Assembly (NCBI GenBank): GCA_964583975.1
Contig: CAZOXU010000001.1
Span: 163,552-227,551 of the forward strand
Direction: 5' to 3'
From: an uncultured Planctomycetales bacterium
GTDB taxonomy: Bacteria > Omnitrophota > Gorgyraeia > Zapsychrales > Fredricksoniimonadaceae
DNA: 64,000 nucleotides
The first letter of the stretch is position 1. Every line of letters begins with the position of its first letter. Shown here piece after piece: positions 6,817 through 60,775 of this stretch. The notes under the pieces are model-generated. The model searched no databases and had not been told where the DNA came from. It saw only the letters and a program-made list of their open reading frames with translations. Both the position numbers and the translations under genes were made by a program.

Positions 6817-8507
6817 AACTGCAAAACTAATATTTCATCGGATTTAACAGCACTGACGAGGAAAGGTGCAAAAGCCACATCTTGCCTTTGCAAAACGATA
6901 CGTTGATCTTTAGGAATGATCTTAGCCATTTGAACAAACTCTTGGTCTTCGGGTCGTAATACTTCCCAAGAACTTTTCTTAAAATCAGGGGCATTAGCTC
7001 GAAATACGGAAAGGGTTGTCAAGGCAAGCGCGATTAAAATACAACCACGAAACACAACGGTTTGAAATCTCTTCACTGAAACTACAGATATAAACATCAA
7101 AAACAAAGGTACGTACAAGAAGCGGCTTTGTTGAGAGCCCATCCACCAGCACAACCATCCCATTACCACCCAAAAATGAAAAAGTAGAAATTGTCGATGA
7201 CGTAAGGACTGGATAAATAAAGAAAGAAAAAGTCCTAAACATAACAGATAAACCAAACCCAAAGGATAATCAAAACGATTGTTCACATTATCTTCAGGCA
7301 CGCCAATCAGCCACAAATGCTCGATGAAATTTGTCAACGTGCGCGTCATACCATAGGTGTTCTTAACATCAGTCAATTGTTGGGAATTATTTTTAATCGC
7401 CTGCCAGGCCAACGAATTCTGATCAATATTCTTGTTGATCATCACCATACCTGCCCCGAAAGGATAAAGCGGCGTTCCACTGTAATATAACGACTTAAAC
7501 AAAAAAGGACCTGCGATAACGAGACTTGCCAACACAAAGACCCCGACCATGCGTTTAAGTCTAGCTCGATACTCACGCCAATCGTCAGCAGAAATCAATA
7601 AACCTTCGGTGAATCCTAATTGAATATTCTTACCCCATATTTTCTTTAAAAGATAATAACTGACGATGATCGCAACCAAAATTAATCCAACTTCCAACGG
7701 TCGAAATGATTTAGACCAAATAAAAAAAGCAGCCTCGATCGCTGACAAAACCAAGCTCCCTCTTAAGAAACTATCGATGCAAGCCAAAAATAAATACGCT
7801 TCGGCAAGCCCCATCATCGCAGTACCTACTTGAATACCTACACTGTGGGCACCTAATACAGCAAAAACCACGAGCACCTTGCTTAGTAAATCGTTATTAC
7901 CTAAACGTCGCATCAATGACCAACACACTAAAACTAACCCAATGAGAAAAACGAACTGAGGCCACTTATTAGGTAATACATCAATCAACCAAAATGGTGT
8001 TAAAGCAAAATCCATGGGTAGAAGAAAGAAATCTGCCGATGACCATCGCAAGTGTTCGAAGGATCCCATAAGCAAGTGCTGACGCGGGATGGTGATATGA
8101 TAATTAATCACATCAAATTCTTGGGGTAAATGTGGTGCTAAGCGTGAGGCATACAAACCAACCAGAAGTATAAAGAAACATAACCCAGCCCCCAGCCAAA
8201 CAAAAATCTTGTTGGCTAGACTTAAAGCCCCAAAGTCAAGCCGTATCTTCTTTAACGCAGCAACAATGCTTGACCACTCTTTAATCAAGATCACTATGAA
8301 TAAGGAAAGAGTAGCGAGCCAGGCTATGGGAGACACGGTAGCTTTATGGCTCGAAAGAAAATAAAGCTCTATCCAATATAAGGGAAAACCAACAATCAGA
8401 AAGAATGTCGGGAAATGAACACTGTAGGTTAATGTTTTTTTAAAAATACAACCACCCTCCAGGCTAGGTAGGCAACCAGAATAACCAAACAATAGATATC
8501 GACCCAC
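6813..8507 (-). CDS. Large polytopic membrane protein (possible GT-C glycosyltransferase or polymerase)
   Basis: The 564-aa product is highly hydrophobic with many TM segments. No specific motif was recognised. Confidence 0.3.
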   Translation of the reverse strand: MGRYLLFGYSGCLPSLEGGCIFKKTLTYSVHFPTFFLIVGFPLYWIELYFLSSHKATVSPIAWLATLSLFIVILIKEWSSIVAALKKIRLDFGALSLANKIFVWLGAGLCFFILLVGLYASRLAPHLPQEFDVINYHITIPRQHLLMGSFEHLRWSSADFFLLPMDFALTPFWLIDVLPNKWPQFVFLIGLVLVCWSLMRRLGNNDLLSKVLVVFAVLGAHSVGIQVGTAMMGLAEAYLFLACIDSFLRGSLVLSAIEAAFFIWSKSFRPLEVGLILVAIIVSYYLLKKIWGKNIQLGFTEGLLISADDWREYRARLKRMVGVFVLASLVIAGPFLFKSLYYSGTPLYPFGAGMVMINKNIDQNSLAWQAIKNNSQQLTDVKNTYGMTRTLTNFIEHLWLIGVPEDNVNNRFDYPLGLVYLLCLGLFLSLFIQSLRHRQFLLFHFWVVMGWLCWWMGSQQSRFLYVPLFLMFISVVSVKRFQTVVFRGCILIALALTTLSVFRANAPDFKKSSWEVLRPEDQEFVQMAKIIPKDQRIVLQRQDVAFAPFLVSAVKSDEILVLQF

Positions 8508-11726: not shown

Positions 11727-13435
11727 TATTTAGTCACCAAAAAGTTACCTATAGCCAACACATCGAACTCAGTACGCAAGAAACAATCAATGGCATTCTC
11801 TGGCGTACACACTATAGGTTCATTCTCATTAAAAGATGTGTTTAACAATACCGGCACACCGCTAATTTTTTCAAACTCGCTGATTAATTCCCAATATTTG
11901 GGTGACACTCTTCGATTAACCGTATGCACCCGTGCTGTGCCATCATTGTGCGTGACAGCAGGCAAAATCTTTTTCTTATCTTCTAACACATCAGCAATCA
12001 AAATCATATATGGTGATTTCTGCCCCTTGGGCATAAGGAAATATTCCTGGGCTTTTTCTTCTAAGACTGACGGTGCAAACGGTCGAAACATCTCACGTCT
12101 TTTCACGCGTGAATTAAGCTTATCCTTCATCTGACTGTTGGTTGGATCAACTACAATACTACGATGTCCAAGAGCGCGCGGACCAGCCTCCATACGATCC
12201 TGGAACCATCCGACAATTTTACCCTGGGCAATATGCTTTGCTGTCTCTTGCGCAATATTGGAAGTCATAACGTATTTTACACCACGGGATCGAAGCGCTT
12301 GCTCGATTTCTTGCTGACCATACTCCATACCCAAATAGGCTGAATCAAAGACATGCTTACGTGGCTGATTTAAAACTTGATGATAATAGTACAAGGCGCT
12401 TCCCAAGGAAGTTCCTGCATCATTGGCAATCGGTTGGAAAAAGAAATTCTTAAAAGGAGTCTGCTCGACAATGCGTTTGTTCATTAAACAATTTAAGACG
12501 ACCCCACCAGTCATACATAAGTTATCTAATTTGGTACGTTGATAAATTCCATTGGCTAAATGAACCCCAGCTTTCTCAATAGTTTTTTGCAAAGCATAGG
12601 CCATATCATAGTGATGCTGGCTGTGCGCCTCACCCTTGGTGTGTCGCGGCCCAAATGTCGTTAAAAATTTCTCGCTCAACCACTGATTGCCACCATGCGT
12701 ATGAAATGATATGTAATCCAAATTCAATTGGTAGGTGCCCTCAGATAATAATTGGACGATGTTAGCAAAATCAGCAACGTAGGTGTCTTTACCATAAGCT
12801 GACATGCCCATGACCTTCCATTCATCAAAGAATGGCTTAAAGCCCAGATAATCAGTTATGGCAGCATACAAATGCCCTAGCGAATGAGGAACCTTGATCT
12901 CTAATAATTTCTGGATACCGTTTTGATCACCCAATGACATCATGGTACTGGTCGATTCACCGCGTCCATCAATGGTTAAAATCGCAGCCTTTTCAAAGGG
13001 GCTGACAAAAAAAGCACTGGCGGCGTGGGCCAGGTGATGTTCGATAAAATGAATTCGTGGTGTTTTGAGTAAGCTAAACTGTTCCTGGACCTTGCGGCCA
13101 ATATTATTCATCAATTGAACGCGAGTCAGAAAAGAAAGTTCGCCGCCACCAGACGACCCTTTTAAAAGATTAAGACTTTCAGGGAAATATTTAAAGAAGT
13201 GAGTCGCGTTGCCTAAAATTTCTCGGTTGGGAACCCAGAAAAATGTGATGTGATCAATATCTTGGATAGTTATCCCCTCTAATGCCAAACACTTAGCGAT
13301 CGCATTAGCTGGATATTTCCAGGTGTGCTTTTCACGATTTAAACGCTCTTCTTCAATGACAAATTTAATTTGCCCGTCCTTAATTAAGGAACAAGAAGCT
13401 TCGTGAGAATAGCTGCTGAGGCCTAAAATGTACAT
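11726..13435 (-). CDS. Carbamoyltransferase (NodU/CmcH family)
   Basis: The 569-aa product begins with the N-terminal YgjD/Kae1-like domain (MYILGLSSYSHEASCSLIKDGQI...EERLNREKH). The C-terminal carbamoyltransferase domain is present. Confidence 0.7.
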   Translation of the reverse strand: MYILGLSSYSHEASCSLIKDGQIKFVIEEERLNREKHTWKYPANAIAKCLALEGITIQDIDHITFFWVPNREILGNATHFFKYFPESLNLLKGSSGGGELSFLTRVQLMNNIGRKVQEQFSLLKTPRIHFIEHHLAHAASAFFVSPFEKAAILTIDGRGESTSTMMSLGDQNGIQKLLEIKVPHSLGHLYAAITDYLGFKPFFDEWKVMGMSAYGKDTYVADFANIVQLLSEGTYQLNLDYISFHTHGGNQWLSEKFLTTFGPRHTKGEAHSQHHYDMAYALQKTIEKAGVHLANGIYQRTKLDNLCMTGGVVLNCLMNKRIVEQTPFKNFFFQPIANDAGTSLGSALYYYHQVLNQPRKHVFDSAYLGMEYGQQEIEQALRSRGVKYVMTSNIAQETAKHIAQGKIVGWFQDRMEAGPRALGHRSIVVDPTNSQMKDKLNSRVKRREMFRPFAPSVLEEKAQEYFLMPKGQKSPYMILIADVLEDKKKILPAVTHNDGTARVHTVNRRVSPKYWELISEFEKISGVPVLLNTSFNENEPIVCTPENAIDCFLRTEFDVLAIGNFLVTK

Positions 13436-20857: not shown

Positions 20858-22837
20858 TTGCCAGGAAAGATTTTTAATAATAATATTTTTCTCATTGTGC
20901 GTTATCTCAAAACAGCCTCTATTTTCTTAGTACTCATTTTCCTTCCGGCTTTCATCTTCCCTTTCAGCGCTCATACAGATGGATTCTATATTGTCACGCT
21001 CAAGGGTAACTGGCTCGGTAATAATGAAGCTCCGGCTCTCATTATGCAAGGCCGGCCGTTCTTTGCTTGGTTGAATAGTTTTCTGGGATGGCATATCAGC
21101 AGCATTGAACAATTCACCTATTTAAGAATATTTATTTTCCTTACCAAAATGGCGGCCAGTTGGCTTGTATTCAAATTCTGCACTTCTTTGTCGATGAGCT
21201 ATCTGTGTTCCTTTGCCACGGCCTTCTTCTTTATTTTGCTGCCAGCCAATATTTTAAACGTACTTTGGACATCCAACGGTATGCCTGAGTCAATCGCCTT
21301 GCTCTTTGGCTTGACCTCCTATGTCATGCTGACAACCACCCTACTCAAGAAAAAGAATGCCATCCTTGCGGCTGCCTTATTCCTATGTTCACTCTTGACC
21401 TATCAACCCATGGCCATGATCGTATTTGCCATGATGTTTCTTAAAATGCTCTTTGCCCAAGAATCGTGGGCATCGACCCGAGCTTCGATCATCAAGGAGT
21501 GCTGCTTCTTTGGTGTGCTTTTGGCCGTATATTGGGCCATTGTCAAAATTGTCATCCTTCCTTACGGCAAGAACGTTCTGAAATTTCCCACGCTTAATTC
21601 GAATATTTACGACATGGAATTGGTCCACAATTTCTCTAAGAAATATGACTTGGCCTGTGAGCTTTTAAGAAACTCCTTGATCGGAACATGGGATGCACTT
21701 TTGCATAATCATCCACGCATTGAATGGCTGGCGATCGCAGCGTTTTGGATCGTAGCAGGGACTGTGCTGTTGATTTATAAGAAACGCGTGACGGGAATAT
21801 CGAACATCGCAATCCAAAAACTTGCCTGCGGTGTCATCTTATTTTTATTGGCCAATACACCCTCACTCATGCCTGTTAATTACACATCGATCATCGGCTA
21901 TCGCACCTTTCTGTCATCAAGCTTGATGGGCTTGGCGTTAGTCATCTTTTATTTTAACTATCTCGCCCGCAGCGTTGACAATCGTCCTTCTAAGAAAATT
22001 GTACATGCAGTGGTGGCTATTTATTTCTTAAGCATGACACTGACGGCCACATGGTTAATTCATCAAACCGTCCGCAATTACCGTAAAGAAAACCATTTCG
22101 TTCAAGCGATTGCCGCCAAAACGGATTATAGCCGTGTTGATACGGTTGCGATCATCCTTAACCGCCGAGGCGACTCGGTCATTGAATATGAACTGCCCTT
22201 TGAATTTGGCTTGACTACAACAACGACTGATCATATCCGTTTTATGTTTGAGAAATACAGTTTACCGCTTGGTAAGACACTCACCTTCCAAGAAGTCTTT
22301 CTAGATTGGCCTGTGGTGGCGGATGATCATATGCAGGTCGTTGATATGCCTTCTTTGCGGGGGGTCGAGCGCATTAAATATGCCAAGCCAGGGGTCAGGA
22401 TGAAGGTTCATTTATCAGCAGAGCCCCAAGCGAACATCTCAATTATCAACGTGTCTTCTACGGCTCATCCTTTACTCGTGTTTAAAGAGATCGACACTCA
22501 AACCCATAAAGAACGCTTCTGGACACTTAAACCCGGGACTCGACAAGAATATATTGAGGTTGAATTTATCGATAAACCTAAATTGACAGCGGGATATAAA
22601 CTGCAAGCCGTATGCGAGGATAGCAAAAAAAATCCCTGCCATTTTTCATGGCAGATCCAGACATCCAACGATCATCAACAGTGGCAAGATTTATCTTTTC
22701 AAACATCGAGGATCCCCAAACCCGAAATCTTCGAGCTGCCTTCCAGGGAAACCAGTAGGTATATCCGCTTTATCATCACCAAGGACAATCCCGATGACAC
22801 GCTGCTTATCCAAGCGGTGCAGTTGTTTAATTTTTGA
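20858..22837 (+). CDS. Polytopic membrane protein with a C-terminal beta-sandwich (discoidin/F5-8 type C-like) domain
   Basis: The N-terminal ~400 aa have multiple TM helices. The C-terminal ~150 aa are hydrophilic and end ..YIRFIITKDNPDDTLLIQAVQLFNF. This is a weak domain call. Confidence 0.3.
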   Translation: MPGKIFNNNIFLIVRYLKTASIFLVLIFLPAFIFPFSAHTDGFYIVTLKGNWLGNNEAPALIMQGRPFFAWLNSFLGWHISSIEQFTYLRIFIFLTKMAASWLVFKFCTSLSMSYLCSFATAFFFILLPANILNVLWTSNGMPESIALLFGLTSYVMLTTTLLKKKNAILAAALFLCSLLTYQPMAMIVFAMMFLKMLFAQESWASTRASIIKECCFFGVLLAVYWAIVKIVILPYGKNVLKFPTLNSNIYDMELVHNFSKKYDLACELLRNSLIGTWDALLHNHPRIEWLAIAAFWIVAGTVLLIYKKRVTGISNIAIQKLACGVILFLLANTPSLMPVNYTSIIGYRTFLSSSLMGLALVIFYFNYLARSVDNRPSKKIVHAVVAIYFLSMTLTATWLIHQTVRNYRKENHFVQAIAAKTDYSRVDTVAIILNRRGDSVIEYELPFEFGLTTTTTDHIRFMFEKYSLPLGKTLTFQEVFLDWPVVADDHMQVVDMPSLRGVERIKYAKPGVRMKVHLSAEPQANISIINVSSTAHPLLVFKEIDTQTHKERFWTLKPGTRQEYIEVEFIDKPKLTAGYKLQAVCEDSKKNPCHFSWQIQTSNDHQQWQDLSFQTSRIPKPEIFELPSRETSRYIRFIITKDNPDDTLLIQAVQLFNF

Positions 22838-23252
22838 CAAAATCTACCATCCATTCAATACCATATTTGTCTCTGAACATACCAAAATATGAGCCCCAAG
22901 GACTATTCTCCATAGGCATCTCTATGTTTCCACCTGCTGAAAGGCCATTAAATAATTTATCTGCCTCTTCTTTGCTTTCTGCACTTATGACAATCTTGCT
23001 TCTGTTTTCATTTTCGTTTGTGCGTCCCATAAATTCCGGCACATCGTTTGCCATTAACACACTGCCTTTACCAATGGGCAAAGCAATATGCATAATTTTA
23101 TTCTTCTCTTTTTCTGCTATTGGCATTCCCGAGACTGCCAGGTCTTTAAAACGTATGACTTTTGCAAACTCCCCGCCGAACACTGATTTGTAAAATGTAA
23201 ATGCTTCTTCGGCATCGCCGTTAAAATTAATGTGTGGATTGATTGTTGCCAT
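22827..23252 (-). CDS. VOC-family protein (glyoxalase/bleomycin-resistance/PhnB-like)
   Basis: The 141-aa product begins MATINPHINFNGDAEEAFTFYKSVFGG, which is PhnB-like. Confidence 0.55.
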   Translation of the reverse strand: MATINPHINFNGDAEEAFTFYKSVFGGEFAKVIRFKDLAVSGMPIAEKEKNKIMHIALPIGKGSVLMANDVPEFMGRTNENENRSKIVISAESKEEADKLFNGLSAGGNIEMPMENSPWGSYFGMFRDKYGIEWMVDFVKN

Positions 23253-23323
23253 AGCTTACCTCCATTTGTTCTGGGCGTGTCATCTGCCCACAACTATTTC
23301 TAGTTACAGGGCGTTGGTGTTGT

Positions 23324-23803
23324 TTAATCTTTAGCTGCTACCTCTAGTAACCCATCAAGATCAAGGGGCTTTGTATACATTTGAACCTCACCGTTCGCAT
23401 CCCGCGGCCATTCTTCCTTGGGCCTGTCTCTATAAATTTCGATGCCATTATTATCTGGATCTCTTAGATAAATTGCTTCACTCACTCCATGATCAGCAGC
23501 ACCTTCAATTGGCCAGTTGTGATCGAGCAATCTTTTTAATGCCCGGGCTAACTCACGACGATCCGGCACAAGGATTGCAAAATGATATAACCCAGTGGTA
23601 TTAGGTGCCGGCGAGGATCCTCCCTGGCTTTCCCAAGTATTTAAACCAATGTGATGATGATACCCGCCTACCGAAAGAAAAGCCGCGTTCTTTCCTATTC
23701 TGGTTGTGATATCAAATCCCAATATCTGCGTATAAAATTTAACGGCGCGCTCAAGGTCGGAAACTTTAAGATGAACGTGGCCTATATGTGTTTTTGAATG
23801 CAT
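23324..23803 (-). CDS. VOC-family protein (glyoxalase I / extradiol-dioxygenase-like)
   Basis: HIGHVHLKVSDLERAVKFYTQILGFDIT ... GIEIY is present. The likely true start is MHSKTH at 23803, with an AAAGGA RBS. The ORF-track start at 23842 lies inside repeat R1. Confidence 0.6.
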   Translation of the reverse strand: MHSKTHIGHVHLKVSDLERAVKFYTQILGFDITTRIGKNAAFLSVGGYHHHIGLNTWESQGGSSPAPNTTGLYHFAILVPDRRELARALKRLLDHNWPIEGAADHGVSEAIYLRDPDNNGIEIYRDRPKEEWPRDANGEVQMYTKPLDLDGLLEVAAKD

Positions 23804-23828
23804 AAACAGTCCTTTGGTACAAATCACG

Positions 23829-23879
23829 AGACATACAACCATTTCTTTCTCATTAATTAAGTAGTGTGGCCCCGGAACT
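23829..23879. repeat. Cassette-boundary repeat R1 (attC-like imperfect inverted repeat)
   Basis: gagacatacaaccatttctttctcattaattaagtagtgtggccccggaac. Arms GGGACACACAACTTA / TAAGTAGTGTGGCCCC are inverted around a T-rich centre. Confidence 0.5.
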
Positions 23880-24147
23880 ATTCGGCATTTTCTTCATAAG
23901 AATCAAGTGTTATTTGTACTGAATCTCCTCTAGAATTTGTTCCTGACGCCTCTCCATCAGAAATCTCTGCTCCATAAACATGCATATCTCCTCCATTGGG
24001 CCAATGGACATACCTCACTTCTCCATCTTCAACTTCTACAGAAACGGCATATGATCCACTCTCCGTGGTAACAGTAGCATCATATGTATCCGCAGATGCA
24101 ATTGATGTAAAGAATAAAAACAGCGATATAAAAATTGATAATTGCAT
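23878..24147 (-). CDS. Small secreted protein (signal peptide MQLSIFISLFLFFTSIASA)
   Basis: The internal ATG at 24145-24147 gives a clean Sec signal peptide. The ORF-track GTG start lies inside repeat R2. Confidence 0.35.
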   Translation of the reverse strand: MQLSIFISLFLFFTSIASADTYDATVTTESGSYAVSVEVEDGEVRYVHWPNGGDMHVYGAEISDGEASGTNSRGDSVQITLDSYEENAE

Positions 24148-24189
24148 ATTAATATGGGCTCTTAGTTCACATTTTTCACATATACATCC

Positions 24190-24246
24190 ATCTAGAAACA
24201 CACAACTTCTCTTTTTCTCATTAATTAAGTAGTGTGGACCCGGAAC
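24190..24246. repeat. Cassette-boundary repeat R2
   Basis: atctagaaacacacaacttctctttttctcattaattaagtagtgtggacccggaac. Confidence 0.5.
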
Positions 24247-24274
24247 ATATTTTGGGCACCATATTGGACGCTCG

Positions 24275-25105
24275 TTATCTACCCTCAGTCTTAACTTTCA
24301 AATTAGCATTAACAGGATTCAATGTAGAATCAAATTTGCCAACATTCACCTCGGGATTGATTCCTTTTATTCTAAGCACTTTCTCACTATCGCTGGAAAT
24401 ATATACCGTTTTGTTTTTCTTTGTATCACCACCTAAATATTCTGAGGCAGCAGCAATCATTACAGGAAACATCTTTCGCAAGTCACTAGAACTACCTGAA
24501 CTTGAAATCTCTGTTCTCCATAATTCTTTTTGCGTTTTATTTTCTCTATAAAACTTTAAGTCAAATGCATCCAAAACAATATCCTTTGCATAAGTTTCGT
24601 AAGTTCCAACATGAGAAGTTGCTCCTATTACACCATAAGAAGGGGTATAAACTGTAGTAGATTGCTGTGTTGTTGCTCCAAATAAGCTAGCATTATTCCC
24701 GTAAACATTCATGTTTCCTGTAGTGTTAGCTGCTCCAGTTGTTGTTGAAGATAATACTCCGGTTTTCCCATACACAGGCATAGCATAGGAATACACATGT
24801 TCTTTTGGATCACCAATTCCATAGCCAAGAAATATCACAATATTAGCTTCCTCTTCCTTATCGACCAATTCATATCCCTTCCATTCCAAGGCTATCTTTA
24901 CATAAGCAAGGTATTCTTTGAATTGGAGGTCATAATTATGCACATTCTGCATACCTGATAGGACAACACATTTCTTTTCAGAAACCTGCTCACTGCTGCT
25001 TATTGAATTTACAACTATAGGTATCTCCGGTGTGATATCTGCATACTGTACTGTCGAACAACCAGATAAAATTAAACATAGTAAAAACCCTAGCAATTCT
25101 TTCAT
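24275..25105 (-). CDS. Lipoprotein (lipobox LSGC), Ser/Thr/Gly-rich
   Basis: MKELLGFLLCLILSGCSTV gives a signal peptide with a lipobox. The remainder has low complexity and no enzymatic motif. Confidence 0.4.
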   Translation of the reverse strand: MKELLGFLLCLILSGCSTVQYADITPEIPIVVNSISSSEQVSEKKCVVLSGMQNVHNYDLQFKEYLAYVKIALEWKGYELVDKEEEANIVIFLGYGIGDPKEHVYSYAMPVYGKTGVLSSTTTGAANTTGNMNVYGNNASLFGATTQQSTTVYTPSYGVIGATSHVGTYETYAKDIVLDAFDLKFYRENKTQKELWRTEISSSGSSSDLRKMFPVMIAAASEYLGGDTKKNKTVYISSDSEKVLRIKGINPEVNVGKFDSTLNPVNANLKVKTEGR

Positions 25106-25164
25106 AATCCTCCCAAGATAATCAGTTCTAGCTTATTGATTAATCATACGTTAAAAAATACAAA

Positions 25165-25220
25165 ATCTAGGGACATACAACTTAACTTTTCTCATAAATT
25201 AAGCAGTGTGGCCCCTGAAC
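25165..25220. repeat. Cassette-boundary repeat R3
   Basis: atctagggacatacaacttaacttttctcataaattaagcagtgtggcccctgaac. Confidence 0.5.
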
Positions 25221-25261
25221 TAGCTAATGATCCAACGATGTCTTTGATGTATGCCCCTTAC

Positions 25262-25846
25262 TTATTTCTTTTTATCGCGGAAATTATAAATTGAACCACT
25301 AGCAACGACCGTGTCTCCACTCGCTGCATGAATTTCAGAATTCTCTTTAAAATAATTACTACACCCATAGCTATTTTCTAATTGTTCTAAAACATTTTTT
25401 CCCTGTCCCAAAACTTCTCGAATTTGTTGCGGAGAATACTCTGGTGTTTTTTTCAAATTTACATAAAAGTTCCCAATTTGCATGTCTAATGAATATTTTC
25501 CGAAACCATTATATTTTTCATAATTATCAAAAATGAATCTATACGTGTTTATATTAGAATTCCGTTCATCTCGATTACTTAAAATCTTCTCAATTTCTTG
25601 TACATTTGCTAATACTTCAGTATAAAAACGGCATTCAAAATTCTCAGATTGCGATTTCATAACGAATTGTGGTGTAATTGTTTTTGGATTAGATGAACCC
25701 ATTGATGGCCAAAATTTTAATGCCGATAATATTACGATAATAATAAATATCGCAATCTTTAACCGTTCAGGAATTAACTTCCAGATTTGGTTAATGAATT
25801 CTTGCATCTCATCTTTAAAATTATCTTTTGATTGTTTCTTTACCAC
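25262..25846 (-). CDS. Hypothetical protein with one N-terminal TM helix
   Basis: The 194-aa product contains the hydrophobic segment IAIFIIIVILSALKFWP. Confidence 0.3.
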   Translation of the reverse strand: MVKKQSKDNFKDEMQEFINQIWKLIPERLKIAIFIIIVILSALKFWPSMGSSNPKTITPQFVMKSQSENFECRFYTEVLANVQEIEKILSNRDERNSNINTYRFIFDNYEKYNGFGKYSLDMQIGNFYVNLKKTPEYSPQQIREVLGQGKNVLEQLENSYGCSNYFKENSEIHAASGDTVVASGSIYNFRDKKK

Positions 25847-25956
25847 ACTTGACTCCTTCTTTCCATATGAACTACTTCAATATTCTCGCTAGTACCTGAA
25901 TTCTAAAAATTATTATCCATTTCTTGAACAAATGAGCTTCTAGTTAAAACATCTAA

Positions 25957-26026
25957 ATCTAGGGACACACAACTTATCTTTTTCTCATTAATTAAGTAGT
26001 GTGGCCCCGGAACTTGGCCCCGGAAC
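25957..26026. repeat. Cassette-boundary repeat R4 (with an internal duplication of the ggccccggaac arm)
   Basis: atctagggacacacaacttatctttttctcattaattaagtagtgtggccccggaacttggccccggaac. The stop codon of the upstream cassette ORF lies within the repeat. Confidence 0.5.
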
Positions 26027-27047
26027 TATTTGTTCTCTCTACTTCAACTAAAGGCTTTATCCAACCCCAGAGTTCATCAAATGGAGCATCTTTGGGAAAC
26101 TTTCTATCTGGATATAATTTACATTGCATTAACATTTCCCACATAGCTTCACACGATCGTCTCGGATGCCTGGCTAAGAATGAATCGTAAAAGTTATGGT
26201 AAACCATAGAATGATGCGTATGAATAAAATCTTTCCAAGTTAATTCTAATGCTGTTTTATCTTTTATATCAATAATTTCGACCTCTTCTAATTTACGTTG
26301 ATGGACATCTCCCCATCCTTCTTTTAATAATCTAATAGCCTCAACATCCGTAGTTGGAGCGCTATAACCAAAAATAGTGAATATATAGGCATGACCCATG
26401 AATTTCTTTACTTCATCCCAGCAATTGCTAATAAAAGGATCTGCCGTGTAATTTTTCTTCATCACTGGATATAAAAGAGGAATGTTGGTGAATATTTCAT
26501 TGCATTTACTGCATCTCTGATTAACAACACCCATAATTTTGTCACTCATACAATAACCAACACCAACATTACCATGAAGAAATAGTGGGTGTGGCATATC
26601 CGCATACTTATAATTTCTACATAAACTCCAGTAAAGAAATGGATCCCAATTAAAAGTAGCAACTATATCTTTTGCTCGGAGACAAAGCACCAGGTGATCA
26701 TATAAGGTTGGAGTTGAAGGCAATTTTAAAGATACGAAATATCCATGCACCTTCTTTTCGATTTGAGGCAGTAGATCTAAGTATTTTGGATCGGCATGTA
26801 GCAAACTATATAGTTGTTCGAAATTCTCACTCTTATATTGAATATCCCATTGCTTTAGCAGAGATCCTAACTCCAAGACCTCAACAAAATCTGCCATTAA
26901 TGGTAAATTTTTCCCTTGTCGTTCTCCTTGAGGGAATGCAGCCCTACTGACGCCAGCACCTAATATGAAGAGGTGTGGCCTTCCAAAAGTAACATTTTGA
27001 ATTTCTTCCTCTTCTGTTCCATTTATGTCATGTACCTTATTAGACAT
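25992..27047 (-). CDS. SIR2-like (DHS-like NAD-binding) domain protein, possible defence-type cargo
   Basis: The N-terminal motif HLFILGAGVSRAAFPQG resembles the SIR2_2 GAGxS glycine-rich motif. The family assignment is tentative. Confidence 0.35.
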   Translation of the reverse strand: MSNKVHDINGTEEEEIQNVTFGRPHLFILGAGVSRAAFPQGERQGKNLPLMADFVEVLELGSLLKQWDIQYKSENFEQLYSLLHADPKYLDLLPQIEKKVHGYFVSLKLPSTPTLYDHLVLCLRAKDIVATFNWDPFLYWSLCRNYKYADMPHPLFLHGNVGVGYCMSDKIMGVVNQRCSKCNEIFTNIPLLYPVMKKNYTADPFISNCWDEVKKFMGHAYIFTIFGYSAPTTDVEAIRLLKEGWGDVHQRKLEEVEIIDIKDKTALELTWKDFIHTHHSMVYHNFYDSFLARHPRRSCEAMWEMLMQCKLYPDRKFPKDAPFDELWGWIKPLVEVERTNSSGAKFRGHTT

Positions 27048-27083
27048 CTGTAAGTAATCTTAATTATGTGCAAGTTTGCATAT

Positions 27084-27159
27084 ATTTAGGGACACACAAC
27101 TTATCTTTCTCTTATTAATTAAGTAGTGTAGCCCCGGAATTCTTTTGGCCCCGGAATTC
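27084..27159. repeat. Cassette-boundary repeat R5 (duplicated right arm)
   Basis: atttagggacacacaacttatctttctcttattaattaagtagtgtagccccggaattcttttggccccggaattc. Confidence 0.5.
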
Positions 27160-27175
27160 TTTATGATAAAGTCTT

Positions 27176-28099
27176 CTATTGAAAAATTAAATTATTTAGA
27201 TATTCTTCTCGTCTTTGACCATCAAACACGCCTCTTAATTGAGAGTTTTCTAATATTTTAAACAGAGAATCTCTAACAAAAAATTCAGTTTCATACAAAA
27301 TACCTTCTGACTGCTCACTTTGGCTAGCCACATCTCTCCCGTGAACAATTTTTGATCTTAATTTATAGGATCGCCTTACTTTTTCATAGATTTCTTTGGC
27401 TACCCCTTTCCTTGATCCTAGAAAAAAGGCTATTCTCTCTGAAATCTTATGAGTAATCTCACTATCACAACCAAAAAGAGATTCTAAGGCTACCCACAAA
27501 AGAAGAAATCTAACCTCCGGATAAGGAGCAGTTAATGCTTGGATGAGTGAATGTATAGGAACCCATAAACTGCTCTTCTTTGAAAGCGACTGTAAAATCA
27601 AATTTAAATCTTTAGCACAATTCAGCTCTACTCTTCCAAATTCATCTGTTGCATACCTGCTATTGGGTAAATAAGAAAATACCGAAGAGGCTTGTCGCAT
27701 AACTGGATAAGAATCAATATTTTCTACATGAAAAACTGTTTTTCCAGATATTCCTGTAGGTTTAACGATCCACATAGCTAGATTAGCGAATAATATGCTC
27801 TCAGTTGCAGCATCTTGCTTGGATCGTTGCTTTTCTCCTTTCCATTCCTTATCTACATCACCTAAAGAATCAGCTTGATATTCGCAAACAAACATAAATT
27901 CCGAATCTTCAAACCGTTCTTTTTGGATAAAACTCAAATAATTAAGCCCCTGCATATTTCGCAAACTATCGGGGATTTGAATAATTTTTACATTTCCTAA
28001 GTCAGCCCCCGAACTTAAACTTCTACAAAAATCTATAGGCTTGATTGTCATCCATTGAGCCATACTTTCTCCTCTTCTAAAGAATCTGGGGACATACAA
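27176..28099 (-). CDS. Hypothetical protein
   Basis: The 307-aa product has no motif assigned. Confidence 0.3.
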   Translation of the reverse strand: MYVPRFFRRGESMAQWMTIKPIDFCRSLSSGADLGNVKIIQIPDSLRNMQGLNYLSFIQKERFEDSEFMFVCEYQADSLGDVDKEWKGEKQRSKQDAATESILFANLAMWIVKPTGISGKTVFHVENIDSYPVMRQASSVFSYLPNSRYATDEFGRVELNCAKDLNLILQSLSKKSSLWVPIHSLIQALTAPYPEVRFLLLWVALESLFGCDSEITHKISERIAFFLGSRKGVAKEIYEKVRRSYKLRSKIVHGRDVASQSEQSEGILYETEFFVRDSLFKILENSQLRGVFDGQRREEYLNNLIFQ

Positions 28100-28137
28100 C
28101 TTATCTATTTCTTACTAATTAAGTAGTGTGGTTCCGA
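28083..28137. repeat. Cassette-boundary repeat R6
   Basis: atctggggacatacaacttatctatttcttactaattaagtagtgtggttccgaa. Confidence 0.5.
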
Positions 28138-28151
28138 AAATCTATTCACTC

Positions 28152-28880
28152 TTAATTCTCAATTTCTAATAGTTCTAAAATCTCTTTAGAAATCTCTCTT
28201 AGGCCAAATTTCTGTGCAACAAAACCTAAAGTTAATAATACAGTATCATAAGCAGTTTCAACAATTTGCATTTGATCATTTTTATATTGAATTGAATTTA
28301 CTCCTCCAAGATTAAAACTTCTTGGATTGCCTCCATAAATTTGCATTATATGTCCATAATGTGCATGGATATAACCTGAGAAAATTTTATAAACATTCAA
28401 ATTTCTCTTTCTAGTTCCTTCGTCTTCTTTAAGTCCTGATATGACCCTTACCATTGCATTATGAATCTTTCTAGTTTCGACATGTTCAGTTACAATTTCC
28501 CATTTACCATCAATATTTGCCTCAAAGAAAGCTTTAATAAACTGATCAACATGCTGAGACTTCTCAGGGTATTTCTCAAGTAAAAAATAAATTTCAGACG
28601 AGCAGTCATTAATACAACGAAAAAGCGCACTCATATCAATAAATAAACCATGATCACATAATACCTTCATGGATTGTATACTTTGAGTTGCCCTTATTGC
28701 TTTTAGAACAACAACCACTTCTATAGTTTGATTAGAATATTCGAATGTTTTCTTCTCAGACAGCCATGCTGGTTCTCCTATTGTTTGTCGTTGAAGTTTT
28801 TCTGTAATGGAAAACAACTTATTTAAATCCATAAATTCTCCGATATACACATTTGTGCTAAAGATAGGTAAAATTAGCAT
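28152..28880 (-). CDS. Hypothetical protein (last/first cassette of the array)
   Basis: The 242-aa product has an alternative start MDLNKLF at 28832. No motif is assigned. Confidence 0.3.
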   Translation of the reverse strand: MLILPIFSTNVYIGEFMDLNKLFSITEKLQRQTIGEPAWLSEKKTFEYSNQTIEVVVVLKAIRATQSIQSMKVLCDHGLFIDMSALFRCINDCSSEIYFLLEKYPEKSQHVDQFIKAFFEANIDGKWEIVTEHVETRKIHNAMVRVISGLKEDEGTRKRNLNVYKIFSGYIHAHYGHIMQIYGGNPRSFNLGGVNSIQYKNDQMQIVETAYDTVLLTLGFVAQKFGLREISKEILELLEIEN

Positions 28881-28921
28881 AAATTAACCAAAATTGACAG
28901 TACTTAGATAAGCACCCAGGT

Positions 28922-28960
28922 AAAACAAAAAAGCCAGCACGTTTTAGCGTACTGGCTTTT
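28922..28960 (-). terminator. Intrinsic terminator downstream of gap (hairpin + U-tract on the minus strand)
   Basis: The minus-strand RNA AAGCCAGUACGCUAAAACGUGCUGGCUUUUUUGUUUU forms a 9-bp stem followed by a U-run. Confidence 0.55.
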
Positions 28961-28967
28961 GGGAATG

Positions 28968-29012
28968 CGTACGGGCTGGTAATCCGCCCCTGTACGGGCG
29001 AGGTAACCTCGC
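28968..29012. repeat. GC-rich palindromic (REP-like) element, copy 2
   Basis: gtacgggctggtaatccgcccctgtacgggcgaggtaacctcgcccctac shares GTACGGGC and GGGCGAGGnAACCTCGCCC with copy 1. Confidence 0.45.
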
Positions 29013-29014
29013 CC

Positions 29015-30184
<1,170 letters not shown>

Positions 30185-44261: not shown

Positions 44262-45461
44262 ATGCGCGTCTTATTCCATTACACTCATAAACAAACCCTC
44301 GGACATACCACCAGAAGCGTTGCTCTTTGCAATGCTATTTTACATCATAAAGCTGATCTTCTGATCCTCCAAGGCGGGGTGCCGCAGCCTTTTATTCATT
44401 TTCCCAAAGGCGCTCGAGTCCTAGATATTCCTTCACCATTTGATGATCGTCGCAGTTTTCAAACGCTTCCAGCTGCTGTATCAGCAGCTCAACGGGCCCA
44501 ATTTATCCTCAAAGTGGCAGAAGAATTTGCTCCCGATGTTTTTATTACAGAATTCTTTCCCTTTGGCAGAATGGCCTACATGTCCGAACTTCTGCCGACC
44601 TTACGCACCTTACGTAAAAAAGGCACTCGCATTATAGCTAGTATTGGCTATCCCTTTCTGGCGGAATTAAATCGGATCGAGGATCCTAAACAAGCTGAGC
44701 TTCAGCAAGCCCTCTTTGCCTTCTATGATCGATTCTTAATTCATACACCTAAGGATCTCGAGACTCCTTACATCAAAAAGAGCATTGCCTCGCCAACGCT
44801 TGCCAAGTTATACACCCGAGTCCTCAAGGATTTAGCGAAGAAAATTGTTTATACAGGCTATGTCTACCCTGAAAAAATCATGACTGGTGGCGGTCAGCTG
44901 CCGACGTTTAAGAAATCAACGAACACCATTGTTGTTTCGCGTGGCGGTGGTGCGGTTTATCCTAAACTTATTACAGCAGCGATCGAAGCGCAACGTCAAC
45001 TGGATCAAACCTACCAAACCATCCTTGCCTGCGGGCCAACCACCACCGAGGCAGAAATGAAGTTATTTCAATCTTACATTAAGCCTCAAGATAAAAATCG
45101 TATCCATCTTGTCAGTCACCTGGATAATCTCGATGATCACTTAAGTCAATGCCATGTTTCGGTGAGTCTGTCGGGATATAACACCTCGGTGCAATTGATG
45201 CGCCATGGCACACCATCGGTGATTGTCCCTTACAGAAATACCCTTGCTAAAATCTCAACGAGCGATCAGGTTGCTCGAGCTGCACTTTTGCAAGCAAAGT
45301 TTCAAAGCACCATCCTTGATTATGAGAGCTTAACTGAAAACTCCCTTGCTAGCGCCATCCAAAAACAGATAAGCCAGCCACGACCCAAGGCCGCACCTGC
45401 CAACTGGTTTAAAGGCGCTGATCATTCGGCACGTATTATCGTTGAAGATACTCGAGATTGA
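44262..45461 (+). CDS. GT-B fold glycosyltransferase (GT1/GT28-like), paralog of 62600..63826
   Basis: The N-terminus is MRVLFHYTHKQTLGHTTRSVAL. The internal VVSRGGGAVYPKLITAAIEA block is shared almost verbatim with the 62600..63826 product (VVRGGGAVYPKVIAEAIRA). Confidence 0.4.
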   Translation: MRVLFHYTHKQTLGHTTRSVALCNAILHHKADLLILQGGVPQPFIHFPKGARVLDIPSPFDDRRSFQTLPAAVSAAQRAQFILKVAEEFAPDVFITEFFPFGRMAYMSELLPTLRTLRKKGTRIIASIGYPFLAELNRIEDPKQAELQQALFAFYDRFLIHTPKDLETPYIKKSIASPTLAKLYTRVLKDLAKKIVYTGYVYPEKIMTGGGQLPTFKKSTNTIVVSRGGGAVYPKLITAAIEAQRQLDQTYQTILACGPTTTEAEMKLFQSYIKPQDKNRIHLVSHLDNLDDHLSQCHVSVSLSGYNTSVQLMRHGTPSVIVPYRNTLAKISTSDQVARAALLQAKFQSTILDYESLTENSLASAIQKQISQPRPKAAPANWFKGADHSARIIVEDTRD

Positions 45462-46422
45462 ATTTCTTTAAAAAACCATGGTAGGCAAAACAACGAGGAC
45501 AATCGCCCTTGGCTGCAGCTTCACTATGTTGCTTTCTGATCGGATCTAATTGCTCAGGCAAGGATCCATCAAAGCCAACCTGGCCCGCTGGTGAGAGATA
45601 AAGACACGGATAAACATTACGCCTGGAATTAATAAACAACGATTTGGCAGGTGTAGCACAAGCTCGAATACATTGCCTTCCACCTTCTAATAAAACCATG
45701 CTGGCTTCAACCAATTTCCTATCGACTCCTGGATAGTTATCTTTAAGGATCTCATTAATCTGAGCTTGCACGCTTCGAACCATGTCAGGGCCTATGGCTG
45801 CTAATGTATCTGTATTAAGCATCGAATGGCGATGATAATAATCTTCAACACCTGATTCCATGATCTTAGGTGAAAATCTGGCTTTAAACTGGCGAGCTAA
45901 TTGATAGACATCCTTGATCTCAAGATAATTGAGTTGATTGATCGTAAATTTAAATTCCATCTCAACATCTTGGCCATGATTCTCTGCGAGCCATTGAATG
46001 GTCTTGATCGTCTTGGCATAAGCTCCTGGCCCACGCAAACGATCGTGGGTAGCTGGGAGGCCATCAATGCTGATACCCATATCTATCCCCTTCAAGAACG
46101 GGCCATAATTCGTAAAAACCCGACGGACGCCTTCAAAATACGCTGCATTGCTGTACACCCCAAAACTTCGAATGGCTCCTTGAGTACGCAATAAAGATAA
46201 CGCTTTTAACAAACGACCACAGTTACGATTTAAAAATGGTTCGCCACCTGTAATCGATACCGAGAAAATCTGATAACGTTCTAAGAGCTCACGCATCATG
46301 CGTACAACCATCGAAGCGGTCATTTCATGGCGCTCTTTTTCCGCCCATATGCCACAATGCTGACAGTGCAGTTGGCAATGATTGGTTATTTCAACGGTGA
46401 CATTCTCAAGTACGGGCTTCAT
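45436..46422 (-). CDS. Radical SAM / SPASM-domain enzyme (peptide-maturase type)
   Basis: The cluster CQLHCQHCG (CxxxCxxC), GGEPFL and C-terminal Cys arrays CIRAC...YPCLY...GDCPRCF are SPASM-like. Confidence 0.65.
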   Translation of the reverse strand: MKPVLENVTVEITNHCQLHCQHCGIWAEKERHEMTASMVVRMMRELLERYQIFSVSITGGEPFLNRNCGRLLKALSLLRTQGAIRSFGVYSNAAYFEGVRRVFTNYGPFLKGIDMGISIDGLPATHDRLRGPGAYAKTIKTIQWLAENHGQDVEMEFKFTINQLNYLEIKDVYQLARQFKARFSPKIMESGVEDYYHRHSMLNTDTLAAIGPDMVRSVQAQINEILKDNYPGVDRKLVEASMVLLEGGRQCIRACATPAKSLFINSRRNVYPCLYLSPAGQVGFDGSLPEQLDPIRKQHSEAAAKGDCPRCFAYHGFLKKFNLEYLQR

Positions 46423-47407
46423 TTTCCACCATTCGACCTAAGGCCAGGGCCCGGTTTATATTTCTTTCATAAAAAGGACATGTCAGACAAGCTTTAAACA
46501 TTTTCTGGACATGGCCATATTTTCCTAAACTACGAAGTTCATTCATCTGCTCTGATAGCCAAAATTCCTTAAAACCTGATTGATCAAAATCACTACTTCG
46601 CATCTTAGCAATACGGTAGCAATAACTATAGTTATCATCGACATTCACAATCGAGTGAAACCAGCCATTCAAGCAGCTCGGAGGAGTCCGCTTAATCTCT
46701 CCTCCCATATCTCCAGGATGTCCTTCAGGCAAAGCAAATTCCTTGTTATACGGCACCTCATTCATTCGTCCGTAATAAACTGAATTGACTCGCAATTGGG
46801 CAGCTAGCTCTCTCATTTTCTGGTGTTCGTTAATATTGCCTGTATGAAGAATGTAGGCAATTTCGATATGAAAATCAGGCTTGATCGAGTCACGCAGGGC
46901 CACAAAACGTCGAATATTATTAATCACCCGATCAAAAAGGTCCTTGCCTTGCAAATCGATAAAGTGCTGGCGATCGACCGCGCCTAGATTGACCACCACA
47001 TGATCGCCTTTAATAATTTCATCACATAACTCTTCTGGAAAGGTGGCGTTGGTAAACAGCTTGACGCTCAGCGGCTTCTCTGCCAAATAGCGCATCATGT
47101 CTTTAAACAAAGGATGTAAGGTTGGCTCGCCTGAACCGACAATTTGAATTTGATCTACATTAAGCTCAACCGCATCATCAACAATCCCCACAAATTTCTC
47201 CCAGGGAAAATGATGTGCTTTCTCTAAATGAGCTGGGTTACCATTACCGTGGATCCAACAATACTGACAAGTTAGATTGCACGAATTGGTAAAACCTATC
47301 CCTATCACCTCAGGACCAATATAGGCTTTATTATCACGGGCCCCGGCAATCCTCAATAAATACCGTCGTTTTAATTCTGCAGCATCAATAATCATTGTTG
47401 TCCTCAA
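46406..47407 (-). CDS. Radical SAM enzyme, tandem paralog A (with a C-terminal 4-Cys auxiliary motif)
   Basis: CNLTCQYC and GSGEPTLHP are present. The C-terminal Cys residues are in CLNGWF, ..YCY.. and KACLTCPFYE. The N-terminal MIIDAAELKRRY..RIAGARDNKAYIGPE is shared by the four tandem copies. Confidence 0.65.
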   Translation of the reverse strand: MRTTMIIDAAELKRRYLLRIAGARDNKAYIGPEVIGIGFTNSCNLTCQYCWIHGNGNPAHLEKAHHFPWEKFVGIVDDAVELNVDQIQIVGSGEPTLHPLFKDMMRYLAEKPLSVKLFTNATFPEELCDEIIKGDHVVVNLGAVDRQHFIDLQGKDLFDRVINNIRRFVALRDSIKPDFHIEIAYILHTGNINEHQKMRELAAQLRVNSVYYGRMNEVPYNKEFALPEGHPGDMGGEIKRTPPSCLNGWFHSIVNVDDNYSYCYRIAKMRSSDFDQSGFKEFWLSEQMNELRSLGKYGHVQKMFKACLTCPFYERNINRALALGRMVENEART

Positions 47408-47416
47408 TAAAACCCA

Positions 47417-49296: not shown

Positions 49297-49304
49297 AATA
49301 TTCT

Positions 49305-54523: not shown

Positions 54524-54526
54524 AGG

Positions 54527-58888: not shown

Positions 58889-58903
58889 AGTGACCTATAA
58901 ATT

Positions 58904-59800: not shown

Positions 59801-59818
59801 CTCATACCCTTCCTGAGC

Positions 59819-60679: not shown

Positions 60680-60775
60680 TCTACAAGTAAATCCCCACTT
60701 AAGAACACCCTTCTAATATTAAATATTATAACATATAATACGGCTGTTTATTAATGCTTCGAGGAGGAACATCGC

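Follow-up and report, generated by a model that had tools for sequence, protein, structure and literature searches.

The 64-kb window analysed here (64,000 nt of contig CAZOXU010000001.1, assembly GCA_964583975.1, from an uncultured bacterium of the Omnitrophota) carries six direct, co-oriented copies (R1–R6) of an imperfect palindrome of ~60 nt, all on the plus strand within 4.3 kb (23823–28144), in an array of genes that begins beside the glyceraldehyde-3-phosphate dehydrogenase (GAPDH) gene gap. Our preferred, though tentative, interpretation is that these repeats, private to the lineage, serve as the junctions or recombination sites by which modules of one gene each were put together. We favour it because a site follows each foreign, promoterless and unrelated gene and none occurs at host genes in the 64 kb, because the last copy lies at a compositional boundary with its distal half degenerate and one open reading frame (ORF) is fused into its site, and because the corresponding junction in a close relative leaves no room for the array. 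The original prediction had taken the locus for a chromosomal integron cassette array or a cluster of attC sites lacking an integrase (CALIN); the cassette-like architecture stands, whereas the sites are not supported as attC, nor the locus as a CALIN in the IntegronFinder sense.

Under the preferred interpretation, the locus would be an accessory array of six modules between gap and a membrane-protein gene on an Omnitrophota chromosome, each module comprising one horizontally acquired, promoterless ORF and one private ~60-nt imperfect palindrome, and recombination between repeat copies would add, remove and reorder modules. A dedicated recombinase with its gene beyond the window could do this, or general recombination might act on ~60 nt at 77–93% identity. 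Such an array would follow the same logic as integron cassette arrays and as the stem-loop cassettes of T4-type phages that are discussed below. We infer that recombination acts on the repeats and that the modules were gained singly, and we put forward the enzyme, the strand, the crossover point and any mobility of the array on the same footing.

The repeats and the genes that they follow

The six conserved copies of the original prediction, and its consensus of inverted arms around a T-rich core, are borne out by the alignment and by three kinds of search. A repeat-family search places the copies at 23819–23877, 24187–24245, 25161–25219, 25954–26012, 27081–27139 and 28081–28139, and a covariance model built from R1–R6, with which the window was scanned with filters off, scores them at 74–91 bits (E values of 1e-18 to 1e-22; Table 1). 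A 36-nt core pattern gives four matches at up to three mismatches and a 24-nt right-arm pattern gives six matches in the window; neither pattern has a match in 100 dinucleotide-preserving shuffles.

The two arms of the repeat, GGG.CACAC.AACTTA and TAAGT.GTGTG.CCC (~15 nt each), form a stem of 13 base pairs with two 1×1 mismatches, both of which are retained across the copies, and enclose a T-rich loop of 16 nt that is conserved to the same degree as the arms. The flanks ATCTAG and GGAACTAT are conserved among the copies as well and therefore belong to the element. Pairwise identity among the copies is 77–93%. In addition, R4 and R5 carry the extra duplicated right arm of the original prediction, in the form of tandem duplications of 13 nt (26002–26014/26015–26027) and 17 nt (27129–27145/27146–27162), respectively, each of which copies the sequence variant of its own element at the gene-proximal end. 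The two duplications are apparently independent and share their starting column in the alignment, one base in from the stem foot; hairpin-induced slippage or a nick or crossover point would each fit. The copies are also mosaic: R1 equals R4 at 21 of 21 gene-proximal nucleotides but at only 13 of 19 in the distal arm, whereas R3 and R6 are alike at 18 of 19 positions of the distal arm and at only 15 of 21 in the proximal part. The mosaic halves and the shared start of the duplications fit recombination or nicking at the stem, with recurrent transitions and hairpin slippage as the trivial alternatives.

A few further resemblances of the repeat were considered and rejected. The look of a Tn3-family terminal repeat (GGGG...TAAG over 36 nt) is a by-product of the CTTA/TAAG inner ends, and neither a 5-bp duplication nor a transposase or resolvase goes with it. 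An IS91-type GAAC/GTTC target beside the element, a sigma-54 −24/−12 look in TGGCCCCGGAACTTGG, and a 4-codon mini-ORF in the loop are not conserved in register across the copies.

All genes between 22827 and 30142 lie on the minus strand. Read in gene direction, the order is gap, the 226-aa gene, R6, the 295-aa gene, R5, the 351-aa gene, R4, the 194-aa gene, R3, the 276-aa gene, R2, the 89-aa gene, R1, and then the two VOC/glyoxalase genes VOC159 and VOC141. The six repeats thus separate seven genes, as the original prediction stated; it listed eight, however, and no repeat lies between the two VOC genes (23253–23323). One repeat follows each of six AT-rich genes and none precedes the first of these. 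The six are unrelated to one another, encoding a DUF5677-like protein, a HEPN-like protein, a protein of SIR2 fold, a membrane protein, a lipoprotein and a small secreted protein, and they have a G+C content of 0.30–0.385 (0.20–0.30 at third codon positions, GC3), whereas GC3 of the flanking genes is 0.38–0.51. The last repeat, R1, coincides with the compositional boundary to VOC159, the overall G+C content of which (0.44) is backbone-like; the distal arm of R1 is degenerate, with the 13 of 19 matches to R4 mentioned above and one deletion, and the stop codon of the 89-aa gene (23878–23880) falls within this copy. VOC159 is probably not a module of the array, since it has no repeat of its own.

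The third module, the 351-aa gene, shows how a gene and its repeat are joined. Its ORF matches a 76% identical homologue from another Omnitrophota genome (locus L003; GCA_964400365.1, CAYNTZ010000002.1) up to ...PLVE.ER, and then enters R4, reads through the R4 duplication and stops within the stem (25992–25994). The last ~14 codons are encoded by R4 and differ from those of the homologues, and codons of the homologue type for the C-terminus are not found beyond R4. The 3′ end of this ORF is replaced by the repeat, which fits a junction rather than a simple insertion.

The original prediction called this protein SIR2-like. No Pfam, NCBIfam or PADLOC model supports that name at the level of sequence families, whereas the predicted structure does: the AlphaFold2 model, made from a 22-sequence alignment, has a mean pLDDT (predicted local distance difference test) of 89, and of its 50 best Foldseek hits in the PDB nearly all are sirtuins or SIR2 proteins associated with defence, including Sir2Af2, CobB, chains of one HerA complex entry, DSR2, ThsA and KomC. 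The SIR2 fold is thus predicted with high confidence. The family counts 5,035 proteins at E ≤ 0.001, in which GAGxS, FNWDP, LHG and cysteine positions are invariant. Where members were examined in other Omnitrophota contigs, they lie in variable regions with tRNA genes, beside AsmA.

Two other modules have features that touch on defence. The C-terminal part of the 295-aa protein has an Rx4H motif (RSKIVH) of HEPN type, as read from the sequence only, and the 226-aa protein is a weak match to DUF5677. Together with the SIR2-fold protein, three of the six modules look defence-related. Cassette arrays have reportedly been described of late as stores of anti-phage genes.

Most module genes are preceded by a Shine–Dalgarno sequence, and the sense strand of the repeat has stop codons in several frames, both as judged by eye from the letters. 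A promoter scan gives no sigma-70-like promoter in the repeats or the intergenic gaps, and no intrinsic-terminator-like site overlaps any copy. The same scans detect TTGACA-17-TATTGT before gap, TTTACA-18-TATACT before the tRNA-Pro gene, and a terminator with a 13-bp stem after gap; the genome therefore does use such signals. This last terminator is strong and lies directly upstream of the array, which is therefore not simply read through from gap.

These results bear on the possibility that the repeat is a shared cis-regulatory element, be it a terminator or attenuator, a promoter, a processing or stabilising hairpin or an operator, with recombination as a by-product. The position of the copies would suit such a role, as they are always intergenic, near the preceding stop codon (stop-to-repeat distances of −39 to +37 nt) and 19–110 nt before the next start codon, and so would the loop, whose arm-like conservation suggests sequence-specific recognition; the sense-strand stop codons would end translation of any ORF joined to the repeat, and promoter early stem-loops (PeSLs) of phages join a GGGG...CCCC stem-loop to ORFan genes and mediate their shuffling (PMC2839356). 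However, no copy has a promoter or terminator where the scans do find them at gap and tRNA-Pro, which weighs against ordinary regulatory roles and against a PeSL-type cassette alike; the stem is weak, its loop is 16 nt long, and no T run follows it. Pairing is equal on the two strands and shows no covariation. Searched against Rfam 15, the window gives only tRNA-Pro at the gathering threshold, and region 22500–29200 has no match at the repeats even at E values up to 10. An element in use by the host would also be expected at host genes, and none is found in the other 58 kb. We therefore regard a regulatory element as quite unlikely.

Comparison of the repeats with attC sites

The R box of an attC site consists of AAC and GTT triplets that meet at the base when the bottom strand folds; cleavage falls between the last A and the C of 5′-RYYYAAC-3′, and the fold presents two extrahelical bases ~6 bp apart, an unpaired central spacer and a variable terminal structure (PMC7439510; PMC4889954; PMC5371416). 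IntegronFinder accepts attC-model matches at E < 1 and asks for two or more of them within 4 kb. As controls we used 13 genuine attCs from class 1 integrons on plasmids, six of which (from locus L043) were folded with DNA parameters.

The six folded controls show what the method recovers. Their minimum free energies are −14.9 to −22.9 kcal/mol, and AAC and GTT occur in the correct order in all six. The attCs of aadA1, psp and qacL have a paired TAAC/GTTA base followed by an internal loop, five of the six have an apical stem with two single-nucleotide bulges 6 bp apart and a 3-nt loop, and the lowest-energy fold of the aadA2 attC leaves the R box unpaired. A simple scan for R boxes (pattern NNNNAAC...GTTNNNN, 6 or more of 7 pairs) was discarded as non-specific, as it recovers one of the six control attCs and gives chance hits in both sequences.

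The same parameters give the six repeats −0.3 to −9.5 kcal/mol on either strand, and the defining attC features are absent in five or six of the six copies. The repeats have no extrahelical bases, no internal loop or unpaired central spacer and no L box, but only symmetric 1×1 mismatches. GTT is absent from R1–R5, and in R6 it arises only from a C-to-T change beyond the stem. Opposite AAC stands GTA in five copies and GCA in R3, so that the first A of the triplet always faces a mismatched base (A·A, or A·C in R3). The triplet is also misplaced for an R box, as it is 3 bp from the loop and not basal. Among ten real attCs, pairing reaches 89% and 11 pairs covary, a level that none of 500 shuffles attains, whereas the six repeats have no covarying pair.

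A proxy attC covariance model, trained on ten genuine class 1 attCs and hence on attCs of mobile integrons, finds all four intact attCs (fosE, aac(6')-Ib4, OXA-101 and VIM) of a held-out sequence (L046, NZ_CP104589.1) at 37–70 bits on the correct strand, two of them (VIM and OXA-101) of types absent from the training set. In the window, its best match is outside the array (11.7 bits, E = 1.4), and the best within the array has 9.7 bits (E = 4.9); no canonical attCs are found in the related Omnitrophota loci either. The two checks that the original prediction had proposed, an attC covariance-model scan (here with the proxy model only) and folding in search of extrahelical bases and R and L boxes, thus turn out negative at the repeats; a lack of model hits was one of the outcomes that it had named as refuting. 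As a separate observation, L046 also holds an aadA1 attC cut to ~20 nt (7775–7794, GTCTAAAACAAAGTTAGAT) by an internal deletion between the R boxes, which the proxy model scores at 7 bits.

The missing features, the weak folding and the lack of a proxy-model match together leave membership among attC sites unsupported. A genuine integron array without a nearby integrase, in which an IntI from another part of the genome would recombine the attC sites in their folded, single-stranded form, is accordingly very unlikely to us. Its appeal lies in the architecture, with co-oriented, promoterless, unrelated short ORFs each followed by a site, six sites in 4.3 kb, and a homogeneity of sites that is typical of sedentary chromosomal integrons (Cury 2016, PMC4889954). 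An ACAYACAAC motif, which agrees with RYYYAAC at six of seven positions, is invariant on the plus strand, that is, the bottom strand relative to the genes. The C-richness of the plus strand throughout the window, together with the majority of genes on the minus strand, would put this bottom strand on the template for leading-strand synthesis, the arrangement of 25 of 30 sedentary integrons (PMC5371416). Set against this are the folds and scores described above and the absence of an integrase: no protein with PF00589 is encoded in the window, in which the original prediction had also seen no intI, and the best tblastn match of IntI1 to the window (E = 0.27) is noise. In the literature, we find no integron or attC report for Omnitrophota beyond generic resistome surveys.

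Distribution of the repeat and the backbone junction

The repeat is confined to the array. The other ~58 kb of the window, with ~55 genes and ~50 intergenic regions, holds no seventh copy, and nothing else exceeds 12 bits on the plus strand; copies dispersed genome-wide, which the original prediction had named as an observation that would speak against an integron, are therefore not seen within the 64 kb. A decayed seventh copy between the two VOC genes (23253–23323, with a CACAAC...GTTGGTG look) is supported by neither the alignment nor the covariance model, and a half-site upstream of the first gene (GACAGTACTTA, 28886–28896), which the covariance model does not detect, is treated as chance.

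Outside the window, the copy-derived model detects no repeat in four loci of other Omnitrophota, two of which hold the closest SIR2-like homologues; the repeat is not found beside the SIR2-like homologues in loci L001 to L003. A degenerate exact pattern over both arms (~42 bits; diverged relatives of the repeat would escape exact-pattern scans) matches, among 185,579 species-representative genomes and the JGI metagenome contigs, one single-copy cyanobacterial site, the same in both collections, which is taken as chance. Looser patterns in IMG/VR viral contigs give single matches only, all at noise level with the covariance model, and BLAST of the repeat against plasmids and phages returns nothing meaningful. 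As far as the searched collections show, the repeat family appears to be private to the present organism. Exact look-ups of two other cassette proteins return only the same sample, a homologue query with five cassette proteins joined end to end gives no match, and the only other occurrences of the array found are identical contigs from one sample.

This distribution makes it rather unlikely that the repeat is a selfish or neutral hairpin element, resembling repetitive extragenic palindromic sequences (REPs) and the hairpins formed by REP doublets (REPINs), miniature inverted-repeat transposable elements (MITEs) or IS200/IS605 ends, that colonised the gaps of the island or was imported with it. 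An imperfect palindrome of ~50 nt with G-rich outer ends and a single orientation is what one would find for hairpins mobilised as single-stranded DNA, the right arm contains GTAG, which is the motif that heads REP sequences, and 77–93% identity is consistent with recent spread; moreover, the island is compositionally foreign, so that genes and repeats could have come together from a donor. No such donor was found, however, in the genome, metagenome, viral, plasmid and phage collections, and the ~50 other intergenic regions of the window and the four other Omnitrophota loci have zero copies. One copy per AT-rich gene, up to the compositional boundary, is unexpected under random insertion, and the 3′ end of the SIR2-fold gene is replaced, not split. 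No target-site duplication is recognised, the only matches beyond the flanks being TA-type ones of 2 nt that are uninformative in AT-rich DNA, and the window encodes no Y1/HUH or DDE transposase.

The backbone around the array is that of Omnitrophota. Among GAPDH homologues at 85–100% identity, the named ones belong to Candidatus Omnitrophica/Omnitrophota, with Brevinematales names at 86–87%, and the genes to the right of the array (tRNA-Pro, AsmA, Ham1, RNase PH and QueF/E/C) are common to the Omnitrophota contigs of L001 and L003; that gap and tRNA-Pro adjoin the array had been predicted correctly. In a relative with a 96% identical GAPDH, a convergent PMT_2 gene lies 37 bp from the GAPDH gene, which leaves no room for an array, and is followed by DUF4346, DUF6580, a TonB-dependent receptor and MTHFR genes, in the same order as to the left of the array in the window. 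In the window, the 659-aa gene stands where the PMT_2 gene directly abuts the GAPDH gene in this relative. Because the backbone order is the same, the array appears to be an accessory insertion at that junction. A second relative, with a 97% identical GAPDH, has a different co-oriented gene after the GAPDH gene, and its contig ends after 2.7 kb. Three independent Logan contigs from SRR12487046 match the window at 100% (30288–28401, 28399–26519 and 26010–23850), and the array is therefore not an artefact of binning or assembly.

Several observations weigh against recombination at the repeats. The hairpin is weak, with shuffle z-scores of +1.4 to −2.2, and its stem shows no compensatory changes and 90.9% pairing on both strands; the structure is thus without independent support and without a strand preference. 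A strand-specific wobble, in which C-to-T changes would keep G·T pairs only on the plus strand, was rejected on the same figures. The mosaicism of the copies could stem from recurrent C/T changes, because four-gamete incompatibilities are also found 5 nt apart. Locus L003 retains, 0.7 kb downstream of its SIR2-like gene, a 33-nt remnant of the start of VOC141 (11727–11760, corresponding to 23220–23252 of the window), and so keeps the order and orientation of SIR2-like gene and VOC141 without any repeat; the genes between them are BrnT/BrnA in L003 and four genes in the window. Gene turnover at such loci thus does not need the repeats. Furthermore, no recombinase, integrase or transposase is encoded in the 64-kb window, as judged by a Pfam screen of 55 ORFs of at least 150 aa, the two shorter array genes (89 and 141 aa) and the ORFs in the remaining gaps between them. 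Finally, the case comprises one locus in one organism, and no circular junctions, alternative gene orders or second array were seen.

The features of the array and its flanks are collected in Table 1. The lipoprotein and the small secreted protein of the original prediction are recognisable from their translations, and both VOC/glyoxalase assignments are confirmed by Pfam.

Table 1. Repeats, genes and flanking features of the array; repeat positions are those of the covariance model, with duplications added where present, and window coordinates are used throughout.
Feature	Coordinates	Strand	Remarks
R1	23823–23882	+	74.1 bits; last of the array in gene direction
R2	24190–24250	+	81.3 bits
R3	25165–25224	+	78.1 bits; 1-nt deletion in loop
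R4	25957–26017 (to 26027 with 13-nt duplication)	+	90.6 bits; nearest to consensus
R5	27084–27144 (to 27162 with 17-nt duplication)	+	84.3 bits
R6	28084–28144	+	79.7 bits; first of the array in gene direction
Module 1, 226 aa	28152–28832	−	ATG with GGAG ribosome-binding site; ORF reaches 28880; weak DUF5677; GC3 0.20
Module 2, 295 aa	27176–28063	−	No Pfam match; phrog_28161; GC3 0.25
Module 3, 351-aa SIR2-fold protein (predicted)	25992–27047	−	GC3 0.30
Module 4, 194 aa	25262–25846	−	One predicted membrane helix; no family match; GC3 0.24
Module 5, 276-aa lipoprotein	24275–25105	−	LSGC lipobox; sub-threshold DUF4136; GC3 0.27
Module 6, 89 aa	23878–24147	−	Signal-peptide-like N-terminus; no family match; GC3 0.22
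VOC159 (VOC/glyoxalase, 159 aa)	23324–23803	−	PF00903; just past last repeat; GC 0.44
VOC141 (141 aa, YjdN-like)	22827–23252	−	PF00903; no repeat on either side
Intrinsic terminator of gap	28929–28960	−	13-bp stem and T run; strong; directly upstream of array
gap (GAPDH), backbone flank	29015–30076	−	96–97% identical relatives used for locus comparison
659-aa multi-pass membrane protein, backbone flank	20858–22837	+	Convergent with array

We note a few further observations around the locus. VOC141, at its stop, and the convergent 659-aa gene overlap by 11 nt at their ends. VOC141 is also bracketed by an imperfect direct repeat of 22 nt (82% identity): the copy at 22814–22835 forms the 3′ end of the 659-aa gene, and that at 23311–23332 lies beyond VOC141. 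VOC141 may therefore have been inserted separately, with duplication of the 3′ end of its neighbour, or the direct repeat may be due to chance. In L003, an identical 21-nt repeat resembling a tRNA 5′ end (AATGTCCCTGTAGCTCAGTTG) occurs at 7464–7484 and 7776–7796 on either side of a GIY-YIG ORF, which suggests that a small insertion lies within a split tRNA gene or between duplicates of one. Further along the window, 45436–62643 is unusually dense in radical-SAM (PF04055) ORFs. At least 11 of them form a cluster, mostly on one strand, and two show hints of SPASM or B12-binding domains; among them lie genes for a DegT aminotransferase, an HTTM-domain protein, a ketopantoate-reductase-like protein and GT28 glycosyltransferases.

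Likeness to known systems

To our knowledge, integrons are the sole well-characterised system that stockpiles single-gene cassettes at a chromosomal site, and their detection relies on the attC signature. If the repeats are recombination substrates, the locus would be a new variant on the theme of cassette arrays in a candidate phylum, invisible to attC-based tools, and an array without attC hallmarks would mean that attC-based surveys may miss a class of cassette platforms. If they prove to be a REP/MITE family, the finding is an ordinary one. Going further, one may speculate that Omnitrophota have a non-integron system of cassette capture, in which a recombinase encoded elsewhere acts on a ~60-nt site and stacks promoterless single-gene modules, including defence-type ones. 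We consider this bolder proposal unlikely; if true, it would mean that the integron principle had arisen independently in a candidate phylum, with a site made of 15-nt imperfect inverted arms with fixed mismatches and a conserved AT-rich spacer of 16 nt, and with its modules placed beside housekeeping genes.

Among known systems, integron arrays and CALINs (e.g., the Vibrio cholerae repeats, VCRs, of Vibrio) are like the present array in having a site after each short, promoterless, co-oriented and unrelated ORF, near-identical sites within one array, some ORFs that end inside the site, and an accessory, compositionally foreign nature. The gene content is alike as well, as VOC genes (here nearby), defence-like SIR2/HEPN proteins, secreted proteins, lipoproteins and ORFans are typical of environmental cassettes. 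The sites are unlike, however: the repeats lack a basal AAC/GTT R box, an L box, a central spacer and extrahelical bases, have a conserved 16-nt loop and a folding energy at most a third of that of real attCs, and are missed by the proxy attC model, and no IntI is encoded in the 64 kb.

The pdif (Xer) modules of Acinetobacter plasmids resemble the array in that small modules are bounded by copies of a site in varied contexts, and their recombinase is encoded elsewhere, being the housekeeping XerC/XerD. Sites of the dif type are 28 bp long (11-6-11) and flank modules in alternating orientation. The repeats, with arms of ~15 nt, a 16-nt spacer, all copies direct and no sequence resemblance, have the wrong arm and spacer geometry, and an identity as Xer/dif or pdif sites was rejected.

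REPs, together with bacterial interspersed mosaic elements (BIMEs) and REPINs, and hairpin MITEs share with the repeats a short imperfect palindrome just after genes, an orientation bias and GTAG in one arm. Unlike the present repeat, which occupies only one 5-kb island of the 64 kb seen, they are dispersed genome-wide, and here no target-site duplication is recognised and neither a REP-associated tyrosine transposase (RAYT) nor another transposase is seen in the 64 kb.

The PeSL cassettes in the hyperplastic regions of T4-type phages, finally, consist of conserved intergenic stem-loop motifs that flank single co-oriented ORFan genes, much as the repeats do here (PMC2839356, PMC4122927). A PeSL has a strong sigma-70 promoter and an effective terminator, whereas the present repeats have neither, and PeSLs reside in phages, whereas the present array lies on a bacterial chromosome with no phage genes nearby (PHROGs gives only two family matches, both of unknown function). 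Recombination between PeSLs excises or inserts a gene together with a chimeric motif, and no dedicated integrase is known for it (PMC2839356, PMC4122927). If attC-based surveys do not miss a class of cassette platforms, the other meaning of an array without attC hallmarks would be that short private repeats can by themselves govern the turnover of gene modules in bacterial chromosomes, in the manner of PeSLs in T4-type phages.

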